Shown: in pieces, positions 4,292-48,426 of the stretch
Layout of the letters: each line of letters starts with the position of its first letter
Numbering within the stretch: position 1 is the first letter of the stretch
DNA from: a virus
Virus record (IMG/VR): IMGVR_UViG_3300042013_000056
Span: 96,001 to 160,000 of that record
Direction: 5' to 3' (one strand)
DNA length: 64,000 bases
Translations under genes and position numbers: made by a program
Notes under the pieces: generated by a model
Told to the model about the DNA's origin: nothing
The model's input: the letters and a program-made list of their open reading frames with translations, nothing else
Database searches by the model: none

Positions 4292-5426
4292 TATCTCTTT
4301 CGAACTCCTTCAAAATATAATCACTGGCATTGCGAATCATCAGTTGTTTAACCTGACTTTCAAAGTCTTTGCCTTGCATGATGCTCATCTGCGCATGGAA
4401 ACCCCATGGTTCAGATGTTGTGTCCCAATATTCTTTGGCTGCAATTGCGTAGGTCTTTCGATCTTCGCCTTGGTGACCGATATGGAACAATTCTACATGG
4501 GTAACAACCCGATTATAAACATTCGAAACAGAAATCTCATATGCATTGATTTTGTCAATAACCAACTGATCACCGGTGAACATGGATTTCAGGTCATCGA
4601 CCTTTTCCATCAGGACCAATTCAATCAAAGCCTTGCTGTTTGATACAGAGTCTTTGTTGCGATGCAAACTCAGATACCAGTCGCCCTTGAGCTTGAAGGG
4701 TACATTGTTTGATGTAATCCCTACACAGCCTTCGGAGCCAACCAGATTCTTGACCGCTTCGACCAGATCACCTTCATATTCGAACTGTTCAACCCAGCAC
4801 CCGAGCAAATCCCACAGTTCCAAGTCTTCGACGATATCAGACCCGTACATAATCCCGGTGTCATTGTCGATCACCGAGAACGCAACCAGAGCTGGTTTTT
4901 CATAACCAACAACGATTCGGTTCCATGGTGCAGTCCATTCGAGATTGACTGTGAAATCCCGTGCTGCAAGGCGTCTCAGATCAGCCAGCAGAGCCGGTTG
5001 GGTCTTGAGCCATGCCATTGCATCATTCGCTTGTTCCGAGCCTGTAGAGCCCTTAGATTTCAAGCGGAGTTCACCATTGGTGTGGATGTAGGTAGACATC
5101 AACGAACCATCTTCCTTGACCATGCACGAATACAAGTCGGTCAAGTCCAAATCCATGGTCATTGGGTTTTCGTTCAGGTTGAAGAATTTCTTCTGTGGTC
5201 GGCAAACCAAATCCACATACGAACCATCACGGCCTACCAGAAACATTGTTCCTCGGCATTCCAATGCACCCGGCAACAGAAAATCTGAGTAAGATGCCAA
5301 CCGATAGTTGAAAATCCTGTACATGGTGTGTTGTTCGTCTGCTGGAAAGTCCTTGAAAAAGAACGCATCCGATTCAGTCAATGCCATAAGGTTTTGATAC
5401 AATTGTTCTGGGGCCACGTTGTTCAT
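4278..5426 (-). CDS. rnlA: RNA ligase 1
   Basis: ECRG, KFFNLNEN, adenylation motif KEDGSL, EGCV, KLKGDWY. Confidence 0.92.
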   Translation of the reverse strand: MNNVAPEQLYQNLMALTESDAFFFKDFPADEQHTMYRIFNYRLASYSDFLLPGALECRGTMFLVGRDGSYVDLVCRPQKKFFNLNENPMTMDLDLTDLYSCMVKEDGSLMSTYIHTNGELRLKSKGSTGSEQANDAMAWLKTQPALLADLRRLAARDFTVNLEWTAPWNRIVVGYEKPALVAFSVIDNDTGIMYGSDIVEDLELWDLLGCWVEQFEYEGDLVEAVKNLVGSEGCVGITSNNVPFKLKGDWYLSLHRNKDSVSNSKALIELVLMEKVDDLKSMFTGDQLVIDKINAYEISVSNVYNRVVTHVELFHIGHQGEDRKTYAIAAKEYWDTTSEPWGFHAQMSIMQGKDFESQVKQLMIRNASDYILKEFERDSAEN

Positions 5427-26625: not shown

Positions 26626-27009
26626 TTAGTGTGAGTTGACAAGAATCTTCAACACATCACGCGCTTTTTTGTATTCACCCAGCTTGATCAAACGGGCTGC
26701 TGTTCGTTCAAGTTCAACGATTGCAGCATCCCTTGGGGTTTCCACCGGCTCGATATTCGCAATCAGTGTCGGTGTACCCAGCTTGATCATGACGTTGCTA
26801 GTGAGGAAACGAAATTTAATATCCGACTGAGAATCAAGCACCAAGTATGACGCTCGACGACCGTTCAGTTCGTAGGTCAGCCAATCGGCTACATCTTTTG
26901 ATTCTTTCAGACTACATCCGGTTTGTTCCCGGAAATCTTTGATCCAATTGATTTTACGATCCGCTACGAACAAGCCGGTTGGGCCGAATGTGGAAACCTT
27001 AAATTTCAT
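26626..27009 (-). CDS. Protein with ribosomal bL12 (L7/L12) C-terminal-like motif
   Basis: KINWIKDFREQTGCSLKESKD matches the bL12 CTD pattern [21 protein letters not shown]. Confidence 0.6.
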   Translation of the reverse strand: MKFKVSTFGPTGLFVADRKINWIKDFREQTGCSLKESKDVADWLTYELNGRRASYLVLDSQSDIKFRFLTSNVMIKLGTPTLIANIEPVETPRDAAIVELERTAARLIKLGEYKKARDVLKILVNSH

Positions 27010-27016
27010 CTAATTC

Positions 27017-27409
27017 TCACTTGTTAGTTAGTACCGCATAAGCTCGAACCACACCAAACAACACATACTTGATAACAGGGTTCACTTTGGAAACACCCAT
27101 TGCTTCAAGGAAGATGTAATCACCTTCTTTACGTGTACAAGTTCTGGTCGAACCATCTTTCAATGTAATGGTTTTGTAGTCGCACAGATAGTCGTGAACA
27201 ACAGCAGCTTTACCATAAGTTCCTGTTGGTGGAAATAACCACTTGAACCCTTTGGTTGTTGCAAAATCGGTCACAAATCCTTTTGGAACAATAACGCGGT
27301 CATCGCCTTCCAATTCTCCAATCACATACGTGAATTGTTTGTTGAGAATCCAAAGAGTCATTGCATCATTGAACGGCGAAACTTCTAGTACATCTGTATA
27401 GCTGCTCAT
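27017..27409 (-). CDS. DUF1353 family protein
   Basis: VPKGFVTDFA, YGKAAVVHDYL, GDYIFLEAM. Confidence 0.85.
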   Translation of the reverse strand: MSSYTDVLEVSPFNDAMTLWILNKQFTYVIGELEGDDRVIVPKGFVTDFATTKGFKWLFPPTGTYGKAAVVHDYLCDYKTITLKDGSTRTCTRKEGDYIFLEAMGVSKVNPVIKYVLFGVVRAYAVLTNK

Positions 27410-27420
27410 CTGTTTTGTCC

Positions 27421-27753
27421 TTATAGACGTTCGAGGAAAATTTCTTCCTGATGCCTATGCAGACCATCCGTGTATAAATCAGCAAGCTCCTTTCTCAATG
27501 CGACTCGCAGCACGATATCTTTCGACGTGCCAACAATTGCATATGCAGCCCGCGACTTTTGATCAGCGGTCAGCTTGTTACCACGAATGAATTGCAGTTT
27601 GATACATTCCATATTCGGAAAGTATTTTTCAACGATCCATTCCATCAAACTTCGACTGAATGAAACGCGATGCAATTTGTTGGTTGCTGGGTCAAAGACA
27701 CCATAAACCAGATCGGAGGATTTGCAGTTACAACTAATGTTCTACACTTTCAT
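27421..27753 (-). CDS. Hypothetical late protein with in-frame TAG at codon 4 (readthrough candidate or pseudogene)
   Basis: CTAAATA-AGG-N7-ATG AAA GTG TAG AAC... continues in frame into the tracked 27421..27675 ORF. Confidence 0.6.
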
Positions 27754-27771
27754 CGGTATTACCTTATTTAG

Positions 27772-28029
27772 TTACCATCTTGAATATGCAAGTTCACATG
27801 ATTGCGACCCTGCAACTAAGCGTTGATTTTTAATCAACACACAAATATCGGCTCTGGTGAACTTGTACGGCAAGATAGGTGATGACATATGGTCAGGTCG
27901 GTGGACCCACATTTCAACCATGTCAGAATCAACCGTATGCCACGACAGTTCACGCACACTACCATTGATAAGAAACATACCATTACAACGTCGCAACAGT
28001 ATGTCTATCAGTTCATTCATCGGGATCAT
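27772..28029 (-). CDS. Hypothetical protein
   Basis: ATGA overlap with the Seg gene stop gives start MIPMNE. Confidence 0.55.
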   Translation of the reverse strand: MIPMNELIDILLRRCNGMFLINGSVRELSWHTVDSDMVEMWVHRPDHMSSPILPYKFTRADICVLIKNQRLVAGSQSCELAYSRW

Positions 28030-28694
28030 TGAATTACCATCTTTCGCCCAAGTACCCACCCAGACGGCTCATATTCACCGAGTGTTGCTTTCGGTATCTT
28101 TTTATTGCCTAGGGTTGGGTGTGTTATCCAACAAGTTCCATATTGACTATTATCGGATGGCTTAGTATGTCTCGCACGCGCTTTTTCAGAAATCAACCGT
28201 TTGGTTTCTTCACGATGTGTTTTACCAGTCCAGTCATAGTCAATCTTCTGCGTATCACCAACATGGCGGAGTTTCTTTGCTTCTCGGAATCTTTCTTTAT
28301 TTGCGTCCGTGCTAGACCTAGCTCTGATCACTTTGGTCACAGCACCCCGATACTCAGGGTTTTCCCAATTCCGTTTAGCAATCTCCGATGACTGCCCACC
28401 TTCACCACCAAGCTTTAAATTCAAGCATTGTGGATCGGTTAACGTTTCTGGGTTGACTAGCTCTGATTCTCTCAAAGCCAATTCATCCCTTGATTCATGA
28501 TATTCCAAAATCTCAACACTATGGTTTTCCAGCCCATGTTTTCGAATCGAATATCGCAATCGTTTACCAGACCCAACATAACCATCGTTTAAATCGTCGG
28601 TTGAGTGCATACCGATGTAATATCGGTTTGATACAAGACATGTGGTCTTGTAGATGTAGTGAAATTTTCGTTTCTCTACTCGAACGTAAGTCAT
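28026..28694 (-). mobile_element. Seg-like GIY-YIG homing endonuclease
   Basis: YIYKTTCLVSNRYYIGMH...GYVGSG; NUMOD3-like GKTHREETKRLIS; perfect TATAAATA upstream. Confidence 0.88.
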
Positions 28695-28728
28695 TTTTGC
28701 ATACCTGTATTTTGTTCATGAACACAGG

Positions 28729-28736
28729 TATTTATA
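28729..28736 (-). promoter_or_regulatory. T4-type late promoter TATAAATA
   Basis: Exact consensus upstream of the Seg endonuclease. Confidence 0.75.
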
Positions 28737-28761
28737 TCAATTGATATGCAAAAATGGTCAA

Positions 28762-28837
28762 TGGTGCAGCCAACGGGACTCGAACCCGTGCTTGGAGAAT
28801 TTAGAGTTCCCTGCCTTGCCAACTTGGCTATGGCTGC
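28762..28837 (-). tRNA. Amber suppressor tRNA (CTA)
   Basis: Canonical cloverleaf, GGGAA-CTCTAAA-TTCTC, TTCGAGT T-loop, CCA. Confidence 0.9.
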
Positions 28838-36342: not shown

Positions 36343-36418
36343 TGGTGCCGCAGAAAGGACTCGAACCCTCAACCTTCTCATTACAAGTGAGCTGCACTAC
36401 CAGTTGTGCTACAGCGGC
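36343..36418 (-). tRNA. tRNA-Thr(TGT)
   Basis: Loop CTTGTAA, CCA. Confidence 0.92.
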
Positions 36419-36591
36419 TTTTTGTATTCCTGTCTCATAACAAAACGATTCATCAAAGCATTAGCCAATGGATCATTGAGTAAATTTTTAATCAAATCCG
36501 GGGCCATCGGTTGAACCGATAGAAGTTCTCTTGCGAGTTGTTCCGGGTCAAACTTTGTAGCCCATTCACTCAACTGTTCTTTGGTCAGCAT
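36409..36591 (-). CDS. Hypothetical protein
   Basis: 60 aa ORF; its TAG stop lies in the 5' end of tRNA-Thr(TGT). Confidence 0.45.
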   Translation of the reverse strand: MLTKEQLSEWATKFDPEQLARELLSVQPMAPDLIKNLLNDPLANALMNRFVMRQEYKKPL

Positions 36592-43292: not shown

Positions 43293-43488
43293 ATAAACCG
43301 GCCCTCACACACAAGAGAATGTCTTTACAGACTAGGCCGGGGTCGAAGCGTGGATTAAATCCTGCTTCTGTACTTCTATTTAGTGCTTTGATTTTCAAAA
43401 ATGGTCGTATTTGCAAAAATAATTCACAAACACCCACTTCGGCAGTCATCCTGTTGCCTTCGTAGAGCTTCCCGCCCAATGAGTATTC

Positions 43489-47684: not shown

Positions 47685-47709
47685 ATTGCTTTGTAACTCC
47701 TATTGGTCC

Positions 47710-47742
47710 AGTATAACAGTCCAACAGGTTTGATTAAACATT
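47710..47742 (-). promoter_or_regulatory. Phage promoter (gp1 operon)
   Basis: AATGTTTA...TATACT. Confidence 0.78.
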
Positions 47743-48426
47743 GGATCAAACTCAGACCAGATAGCGAAGCTGCTTTGAACGCAGTGAAAAGCCCAATCAT
47801 GATTTTAGAATCATTTAAAAGCTTTTAGTCGGTTCTAATCATCAACTCACTTCGTTCGTTGATTCGCTTCGCTCAAATCTTTATTGATTTTTTATCGTTC
47901 TTCTAAAAGGTTTAGATAGAATTCACCCATTAAAGGCAAATTCCAGAAACAGTTTTACAAAAATAGTTTCAATTGAAATACGCTAGTCGCACCTGCAAGG
48001 TGGGTGAGGGTCATACTGTTCACACTTTAAACGACTGTTCTTTGGCGGAAGGAAAATGTACCCAGCGTATCGAGCGTTCAAAATCCTTGGTGTTGGTTCT
48101 GTTTCATTCCAGCGGCACCATCCTATCATATTCATTTGTATCATTCCCTAGAGTGCCGATAGAGGTTGCCCGATTCATTTGGTTATGACTTACCCTAGAA
48201 CCGTTTGATGCAACAATATCGGATAGCATGGACGCCACTCAGTGAAGGTGGGGATTTTGCTATTCGGCTTGTAATAAAACGCAGGCGAACGAACGCCTTG
48301 ACCTTACGGCCCAAAATTATTTTTGATTTTAATTAGAATGGTATCGAGAATTGGTCTGGTACGAGCATTGGGGCCGCCACGCCCCACGTCGCCTACCGGT
48401 CAGGTAGGTAATAGAATTTATCAATC

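Follow-up and report, generated by a model that had tools for sequence, protein, structure and literature searches.

The stretch of viral DNA analysed here, referred to as the window, comprises 64,000 nt (IMG/VR record IMGVR_UViG_3300042013_000056, bases 96001–160000 of a 182,859-bp phage genome with 44.9% GC) and contains a small gene whose fourth codon is an in-frame amber stop. On the same strand, 1,009 nt from the ATG of this gene at 27753, lies a tRNA gene with the anticodon CUA. From comparison with related loci, the gene is probably expressed by tRNA-dependent read-through of its early stop, and a probability of about 80% is assigned to this reading; it will be denoted as the gated gene. 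Gene and tRNA together appear to constitute a recurrent, repeatedly evolved module of many large phages with tRNA islands. An initial annotation, made from the letters of the window alone, had proposed suppression-gated expression that makes the gene dependent on the phage's own tRNA. This proposal is now supported by the conservation of the TAG codon, by purifying selection on the codons that follow it, by the linkage of gene and tRNA and by the match between stop and anticodon.

All elements described in the initial annotation are located at the expected places (Table 1). CTAAATA and AAGG precede ATG AAA GTG TAG AAC ATT, and the frame remains open for 106 codons down to 27421. The tRNA, which had been described as a clean cloverleaf with a CTCTAAA loop about 1 kb away from the gene, is called by ARAGORN with the anticodon CUA. 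Likewise, the open reading frame (ORF) search catches the gene exclusively from an internal TTG, the sole start visible to the ORF finder. This TTG is not preceded by a Shine-Dalgarno (SD) sequence, and initiation there would remove a conserved Cys motif as well as the first β-strands of the protein.

Table 1. Features of the gated gene and its surroundings, in window coordinates.
Feature	Position	Strand	Description	Basis
Stop of upstream ORF	27774–27772	−	TAA	sequence
CTAAATA	27771–27765	−		sequence
SD-like AAGG	27765–27762	−	8 nt 5′ of ATG 27753	sequence
ATG AAA GTG	27753–27745	−	start and two sense codons before the stop	sequence and relatives
In-frame amber codon TAG	27744–27742	−	codon 4, followed by A (AAC ATT)	sequence and relatives
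Gene body	27741–27424	−	106 sense codons after TAG; N-terminal Cys-x-Cys-Lys motif; compact α/β domain	
Internal TTG	27675–27673	−	first canonical start after TAG; 84 aa	ORF list
Terminator of gated gene	27423–27421	−	TAA	sequence
Small ORF	27772–28029	−	~85 aa; between tRNA(CUA) and gated gene; conserved in lineage A	ORF list
GIY-YIG homing endonuclease	28026–28694	−	between tRNA(CUA) and module	PHROG 314, E 8e-38
tRNA(CUA)	28762–28837	−	amber suppressor anticodon; 76 nt, loop CUCUAAA, A73, encoded CCA	ARAGORN

An ATG, zero to five sense codons and a stop are found ahead of a conserved Cys-x(1-5)-Cys N-terminus at about 40 homologous loci. The position of the TAG is kept in relatives with approximately 70% DNA identity and down to approximately 32% protein identity. 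In every locus of the TAG type the codon just before the body is TAG, with no instance of TAA or TGA there, and in every TAG-type lineage the base after it is an A. According to the context effects described for Escherichia coli by Bossi and by Miller and Albertini, an A after UAG reportedly favours amber suppression. Furthermore, an AGGA, AAGG or GAGG sequence is positioned 6–8 nt 5′ of the pre-stop ATG in nearly all lineages and is not spaced for any later codon.

The nearest cultured relatives are the Pseudomonas phages Milchi and Astolliot, with genomes of about 174 kb and about 70% nucleotide identity at the locus. At the same place they harbor ATG AAC/AAA GAA TAG AAA/AAT ATC, with wobble-type variation right after the TAG. 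Their tRNA(CUA) is located one gene upstream and is denoted as "suppressor tRNA" in the Milchi annotation, and the first 36 codons of the gene were left uncalled by the annotators of both phages. The pattern seen in the window is also present in the relatives L003, L004, L010, L012/13 and L016-18 from IMG/VR and metagenomes. All relatives of this group (lineage A) retain an ATG and two sense codons before the TAG, namely AAA GTG, AAA GAA, AAC GAA or AAG ATG. Codon 4 itself, which the initial annotation had singled out for comparison across homologs, is kept as TAG, and no sense codon is found there in the lineage-A relatives.

From the TAG to the first canonical start, a distance of 22–24 codons in these comparisons, the sequence is under purifying selection in the frame of the gene. 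For the 22 codons of lineage A the pooled ratio of nonsynonymous to synonymous changes (pN/pS) is 0.12, as compared with 1.1 and 1.7 for the two alternative frames. A pN/pS of 0.10 is obtained for the post-TAG segment of the Klebsiella lineage (lineage B, see below), and the off-frames over both lineages range from 1.1 to 4.3. In databases this part of the gene is generally missing: 12 of the 12 homologs retrieved by the first protein search (5.8-billion-protein database) are called N-terminally short, with 70–96 residues, and in every record examined the gene is either absent from the annotation or shortened. Two ways of providing the frame with another start were considered and rejected. Codon 6 is ATT in the window, ATC in Milchi, GTA in L004 and GTT in L012, so that a hidden non-canonical start at this position is not conserved. 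The far-upstream in-frame ATG codons of L004, L007 and others are chance occurrences, the true upstream ORF being in a different frame.

The tRNA(CUA) is part of an island of 32 tRNA genes in the window, all of them on the minus strand. It forms a regular cloverleaf with a 7-nt anticodon loop, U33, a purine at position 37 and a T-loop. When 15 homologous or analogous tRNA(CUA) genes are aligned, compensatory changes are apparent in 18 of the 21 stem pairs, while U33, CUA and A37 are invariant. The nearest paralog in its own genome is a Gly tRNA with just 70% identity. No match was obtained with blastn for the window tRNA pair against phage records, nor for the Klebsiella-phage tRNA(CUA) against E. 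coli genomes; the latter tRNA scores 60 bits on Rfam RF00005. A weak pointer to the amino-acid identity of the tRNA is given by P0017, the closest ordinary homolog of the metagenomic locus L026, which carries Leu where L026 has the TAG.

On the minus strand no terminator-like site is observed between tRNA(CUA) and the gated gene. The GIY-YIG homing endonuclease that lies between them in the window is an insertion not present in relatives, whose tRNA(CUA) is only about 300 nt away from the ATG, and it is no part of the gating mechanism. Its stop overlaps the ATG of the next ORF (ATGA). The small ORF at 27772–28029 has neither a Pfam nor a PHROG match.

A TAG is accompanied by a tRNA(CUA) on the same strand, at a distance of 0–2.2 kb, in seven lineages: the window group, Klebsiella phages of the Stephanstirmvirinae, Acinetobacter phages of the genus Hadassahvirus, Synechococcus phage BUCT-ZZ01, and the metagenomic L026, L031 and L034. 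In the Klebsiella phages KP13-26, phi1_175008 and KP2025 and their metagenomic kin (about 32% amino-acid identity) the gene starts with SD-ATG TCA TAG ACT AAT TGT, and the tRNA(CUA) begins 12 nt before the gene end. The T4-like Acinetobacter phages AbTZA1 and AB-Navy71 as well as about ten more records show ATG AAA CAT TAG ATT TGT, with an annotated tRNA-Sup-CTA about 420 nt upstream. In BUCT-ZZ01, a member of the Kyanoviridae, the TAG is codon 7 and the tRNA(CUA) is located about 570 nt upstream. Among the metagenomic loci, L026 has the TAG at codon 3 and the tRNA(CUA) 0.4 kb upstream, L031 at codon 6 (codon 3 from a second ATG) with the tRNA about 0.4 kb upstream, and L034-36 at codon 5 (again codon 3 from a second ATG) with the tRNA 2.2 kb upstream. 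Two loci are of the TGA type. L039 starts with SD-ATG ACT TGG TCG TGA GTG and is flanked by a tRNA(UCA) scoring 73 bits on the Rfam tRNA model, and L040 (ATG TGA GTA TGT) has a tRNA(UCA) of 70 bits on this model 95 nt downstream of the gene.

Two TAG lineages lack a suppressor. The L014/L021/L022 group has ATG ACC TAG ATG, hence a start at +1 after the TAG, in a 180-kb record without any tRNA. In Alishewanella phage Slickus01 a TTG follows six codons after the TAG, and the complete genome is devoid of a canonical CUA tRNA. In both cases a start codon is available soon after the TAG and ahead of the Cys motif. In suppressor-bearing loci, with the exception of L039, the stop is separated by at least 10 codons from the first canonical start, which falls beyond or inside the Cys motif.

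Several loci do not conform to read-through by a linked suppressor and weigh against it. The pairing of TGA with tRNA(UCA) is known from the single contigs L039 and L040, and the TGA of L039 has a GTG immediately behind it. Single-protein scans for close relatives of L039, L040 and L049 returned essentially only the queries, so the TGA and TAA cases are unreplicated. L037 (IMGVR_UViG_3300011242_000001, 4995–5312) has SD-ATG-TAG in front of an intact family member with no later start, and its complete 381-kb genome encodes 16 tRNAs, none of them CUA or another suppressor; no stop-codon recoding is seen on this contig. In L049 the stop is TAA, and the 25 tRNAs seen on its contig, which is about 9% complete, do not include a UUA tRNA. 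Myxococcus phage Mx1 (L089:3990–4336) offers no in-frame start at all ahead of the Cys motif in the conserved frame, which could be due to a required frameshift, to an error in the form of an indel or to a further variant of gating. In the L014 group ATG-ACC-TAG is retained ahead of the normal ATG, and this leader ORF may either be a vestige or serve a function in its own right. Finally, the "ordinary" starts ascribed below to database proteins are those of gene callers and not a reading of the DNA.

Some peculiarities of individual carriers were recorded as well. In the Klebsiella lineage the tRNA(CUA) overlaps the last 12 nt of the gene (L006:3286–3360, gene end 3297; also L007, L015 and L023-L030). 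The terminator of the gene is a TAG inside the D-arm of the tRNA, followed by TGG TAA, and 5′ processing of the tRNA would cleave the mRNA ahead of its stop. The anticodon stem of this tRNA(CUA) contains conserved mismatches. Slickus01, in which the family member retains its TAG, harbors a tRNA-like element (L008:18125–18203, 27.6 bits, annotated as tRNA-Ser) with TTCTAAG in a 12-nt loop closed by GCGCC/GGTGC, possibly an amber suppressor in decay. In Mx1 the only SD-preceded ATG nearby overlaps an in-frame TGA (ATGA) and is itself in another frame.

In a codon-usage scan of all six frames the gated gene is the only one in 182,859 bp where coding crosses a stop; a whole-genome scan for further in-frame TAG codons had been suggested in the initial annotation, and no other gene crosses one. 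A control scan over all stops, which demanded at least 12 coding-like codons from the stop to the first canonical start and an ATG within six codons before the stop, did not detect a second ORF in which a start-less but coding-like N-terminus is combined with an ATG shortly ahead of the stop. A second scan candidate, a TAG at genome position 34246, was discarded as a plain 5′ untranslated region with its own SD-ATG. General recoding of TAG, TGA or TAA in the window genome or in related contigs is rejected by these scans, and the ORFs on the relatives' contigs do not become longer when TAG is read as sense.

As a terminator, TAG is nearly absent. Of 249 genes predicted in a crude set that spans 80% of the genome, 156 end in TAA, 89 in TGA and four in TAG (1.6%), and given that TAG accounts for 19% of all stop trinucleotides, the binomial probability of such scarcity is 7e-18. 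In the four TAG-ended ORFs, which encode 41–90 residues, the base after the TAG is T or C, and a further stop follows as a back-up within 3–25 codons. According to the initial annotation only one gene, at 36409, ends in TAG; this is essentially right, although the crude set contains 47703–47828 in the window in addition to 36409–36591. The accompanying argument that suppression would cost the phage little holds because of this low share of TAG terminators. Judged by its stop codons, the genome behaves as if the suppressor were active.

The protein family comprises 224 members as found by a profile search of 1.84 billion cluster representatives. Many of them are full length (105–125 residues), with an ordinary ATG, 2–10 residues and then Cys-x(1-5)-Cys, and about half are called short. 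Gated and ordinary-start members are intermingled in a maximum-likelihood tree, which calls for at least 4–5 gains or losses. Well-supported sister pairs of gated and ordinary members are L026 (TAG) and P0017, L031 (TAG) and P0016, L040 (TGA) and P0104, and the Klebsiella clade and P0014. The state of TAG plus tRNA requires at least four changes on well-supported branches, and L039 and L040 count as independent TGA cases. In view of this dispersal, the early stop has been gained or lost repeatedly within one family. Those members that can be read as DNA are almost all located inside or beside tRNA arrays. A scan of genome contigs returned no relatives.

The AlphaFold2 model of the gated protein, calculated from a 24-sequence alignment, depicts a compact α/β domain with the order E-E-H-E-E-E-H-E (E, strand; H, helix) and a high overall confidence (pLDDT 89, pTM 0.77). 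Low confidence is restricted to the first eight residues, which hold the Cys motif. Three Arg, a Ser, a Tyr and a Gly are invariant and might, speculatively, hint at a phosphate or nucleic-acid ligand. No significant match to the gated protein exists in Pfam, NCBIfam or PDB sequence profiles, nor in PHROGs (best PHROG 29342, E 0.086). Structural searches gave a best E of 0.23 with Foldseek against the PDB and a best Z of 3.3 in a wide search with VIA-align; in BFVD only uncharacterised phage proteins were retrieved, for instance one from RaK2, and the ESM Atlas gave no result. A role in the phage takeover of translation would be a guess.

Other explanations of the early stop have been considered. 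The short frame could be a leader in which ATG-AAA-GTG is translated, termination occurs at the TAG and ribosomes reinitiate at a nearby non-canonical codon such as the ATT at codon 6, while the tRNA(CUA) is coincidental or has another use. An arrangement typical of termination-reinitiation is seen in L014, L021 and L022, where an ATG follows SD-ATG-ACC-TAG at once and no tRNA is around; L037 has its ATG-TAG in a complete genome without a CUA tRNA, and two codons after the TAG both the ATT of the window and the ATC of Milchi would be eligible. The GTA of L004 and the GTT of L012 at this position are, however, at odds with it, and no near-cognate start occurs at a consistent place in the Klebsiella and Acinetobacter phages, L026, L031 or L037. 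Since reinitiation furthermore leaves the matching of TAG with CUA and of TGA with UCA, the invariable A after the TAG and the near-ban of TAG terminators unexplained, it is considered improbable. Read-through might also be real without constituting a gate, the stop being a tolerated nonsense mutation in a dispensable tail and the suppressor having its job elsewhere, for example in disturbing host termination. The tail is poorly conserved and modelled with low confidence, and selection against such mutations would be relaxed in suppressor-bearing genomes. Drift of this kind would spread stops over many genes, whereas just one is found in 183 kb, and the same family acquired its early stop at least 4–5 times, always 0–5 codons from the ATG, with an A after the TAG and with a linked tRNA; a purely tolerated stop is thus regarded as quite improbable.

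It is very unlikely that the real gene is the 84-residue ORF from TTG 27675 and that the sequence upstream is conserved for a different reason, such as an RNA element. This ORF alone is found by standard rules, and the annotators of the relatives chose internal starts, too. The first internal start varies among relatives in type as well as in place, however, lying anywhere between codons 6 and 69 after the stop, and the TTG has no SD sequence. Moreover, the 22 upstream codons evolve as protein and carry the family-wide Cys motif together with the first β-strands of a confidently predicted fold. As a fallback, the initial annotation had retained a simple nonsense mutation or a sequencing error, and viewed in one genome a lone in-frame stop in a small hypothetical gene does look like an error or a dead gene. 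About 40 independent assemblies and isolates nevertheless share this stop, and the ORFs downstream of it are intact and under selection, by which this fallback is ruled out and a sequencing error or recent pseudogene becomes extremely unlikely.

In the preferred reading, tRNA-dependent read-through, initiation at ATG 27753, directed by the SD sequence 8 nt upstream, would lead to Met-Lys-Val. With host release factor 1 (RF1) alone, the ribosome would release this tripeptide at the UAG and the protein would not be made. Charged phage tRNA(CUA) would compete with RF1 and decode the UAG, giving rise to a protein of 110 residues. Since tRNA and gene share a strand and are not separated by any terminator-like site, the arrangement would in its logic correspond to a coherent feed-forward AND gate that requires both the mRNA and the suppressor tRNA. 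By such a gate leaky expression would be silenced and expression would be delayed until the phage tRNAs work, and the protein level would track the balance of suppressor to RF1. Because the stop is positioned in a disordered N-terminal tail, the inserted residue would hardly matter and a failure would cost no more than a tripeptide. Read-through and its efficiency, the inserted amino acid, the purpose of the gate and the co-transcription of tRNA and gene are inferred from sequence. Much less sure than read-through itself is the purpose, which could be that of a timer, of a leak dampener or of a sensor of suppressor activity with feedback. A possible, if doubtful, extension is that the family acts as a sensor-effector, which would gauge suppressor activity via its own early stop and feed back on the tRNA, on release factors or on the tRNA island, thereby forming a tRNA-based loop of the prfB kind. 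This would explain why amber and opal, possibly also ochre, gating arose repeatedly in one tRNA-island family.

Recoded crAss-like, Lak and other gut phages have TAG or TGA reassigned and encode suppressor tRNAs (bioRxiv 10.1101/2021.08.26.457843; PMC7886860; PMC10879173). As in these phages, a phage suppressor tRNA would read an in-gene stop in a host with the standard code, and this stop is shunned as a terminator; expression timing is among the roles proposed for recoding, as it is for the gated module. Recoded phages, however, contain hundreds of in-frame stops across late or lytic blocks, in contrast to one stop in one small gene, within codons 2–7, in the present case, where the remaining genes keep to the standard code and a single conserved family, linked to the tRNA, is the target. 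The window genome does not qualify as a recoded phage because only one gene crosses a stop. In Streptomyces the tRNA-Leu(UAA) encoded by bldA gates a few genes that hold the rare codon TTA. Both systems share a dedicated tRNA, a codon almost absent from the genome, few targets and gating at the level of decoding. A comparable rarity is found here, with one in-frame TAG, four small TAG-ended ORFs and one tRNA(CUA). Contrary to bldA, which serves a cellular developmental switch by way of a sense codon, the phage module would employ a terminator in competition with RF1, has a single target and is compact and mobile.

The prfB gene for release factor 2 (RF2) contains an early in-frame UGA, which is read by its own product and allows autoregulation through a +1 frameshift. 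In both prfB and the gated gene an early in-frame stop would sense termination versus alternative decoding. The bypass in prfB is the +1 frameshift, whereas the gated gene stays in phase with its ATG and TAG and the off-frames are unselected. Leaky termination in Qβ A1 and in gag-pol of murine leukaemia virus (MuLV) adds a C-terminal extension in a few percent of cases and relies on near-cognate host tRNAs. These are likewise functional viral stops that are read through; they terminate a complete protein, however, while the pre-stop product would here be a di- to hexapeptide and the tRNA is cognate and encoded by the virus.

A synthetic "leak dampener", in which a suppressor tRNA operates in a feed-forward manner on amber and opal codons, provides low leak and high fold-induction (PMC7969014). 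As proposed for the phage module, a nonsense-bearing gene is expressed there only together with a co-regulated suppressor tRNA. The leak dampener is engineered, whereas the phage module is apparently its natural counterpart, with co-transcription of tRNA and gene presumed, and would set a natural precedent for this kind of gating in synthetic biology.

Many standard-code phages carry a lone suppressor tRNA, for which genome papers usually report no known target (e.g. PMC9022506) or leave the role open (PMC8386662). No description of the gene-tRNA module was found in the literature searched. It would supply a concrete and widespread, first dedicated target gene for these "orphan" suppressor tRNAs, and it may represent a minimal first step toward full stop-codon recoding. 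In addition, it exposes a systematic annotation error by which the gene is missed or shortened. The occurrence of the module in cultured phages of Pseudomonas, Klebsiella, Acinetobacter (T4-like) and Synechococcus makes laboratory study possible.

The CTAAATA in front of the gated gene had been labelled a late-type promoter in the initial annotation, but neither this label nor late timing of the gene is supported. The motif ends 11 nt before the ATG and overlaps the SD sequence, and a T4-style transcription start would therefore fall on or after the latter. It abuts the stop of the previous gene and is absent in the relatives Milchi, L004 and L010. In the whole genome CTAAATA is not enriched, with 25 copies as compared with about 34 expected. 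The more general motif [C/A]TAAATA is likely a phage-specific promoter, perhaps a late one: 12 of 25 CTAAATA and 13 of 22 ATAAATA copies are located 16–60 nt 5′ of gene starts, particularly before large plus-strand genes (e.g. 53583, 59232, 66409, 70937/70947 and 78498 in window numbering), and several of them directly follow terminator hairpins. Such placement upstream would fit a late promoter of the T4 type, and a gp55-like late sigma factor is encoded by the relatives.

Two further promoter-like sequences were noticed in the surroundings. The perfect T4 late-promoter consensus TATAAATA is present at 28728–28735 on the minus strand, just downstream of tRNA(CUA) and upstream of the homing endonuclease, and TATAAATA occurs six times in the genome. 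About 20 nt upstream of CTAAATA there is an A/T-rich TTTT(N)GAAAA box, and this combination is repeated at window positions 43383 and 41357 on the minus strand and at genome position 179392 on the plus strand, thus forming a repeated promoter-like element in the tRNA island.

Directly downstream of the gated gene, an ORF with a below-cut-off match to the C-terminal domain of bL12 (PF00542, E 0.0026) is conserved in the window lineage (window 26626–27009, minus strand; L004:3343–3774). In the window a DUF1353 gene (27017–27409, PF07087, E 4e-17) is inserted between the two. The genome of the window gave no PF00472 match that would indicate an RF-1 domain gene. In AbTZA1 a small ORF annotated as "RF-1 domain peptide chain release factor" (L091:4377–4613), with no visible GGQ, adjoins the family member, and in Mx1 the neighbour of the family member is a small ORF annotated as "peptidyl-tRNA hydrolase" (L089:3726–3986).

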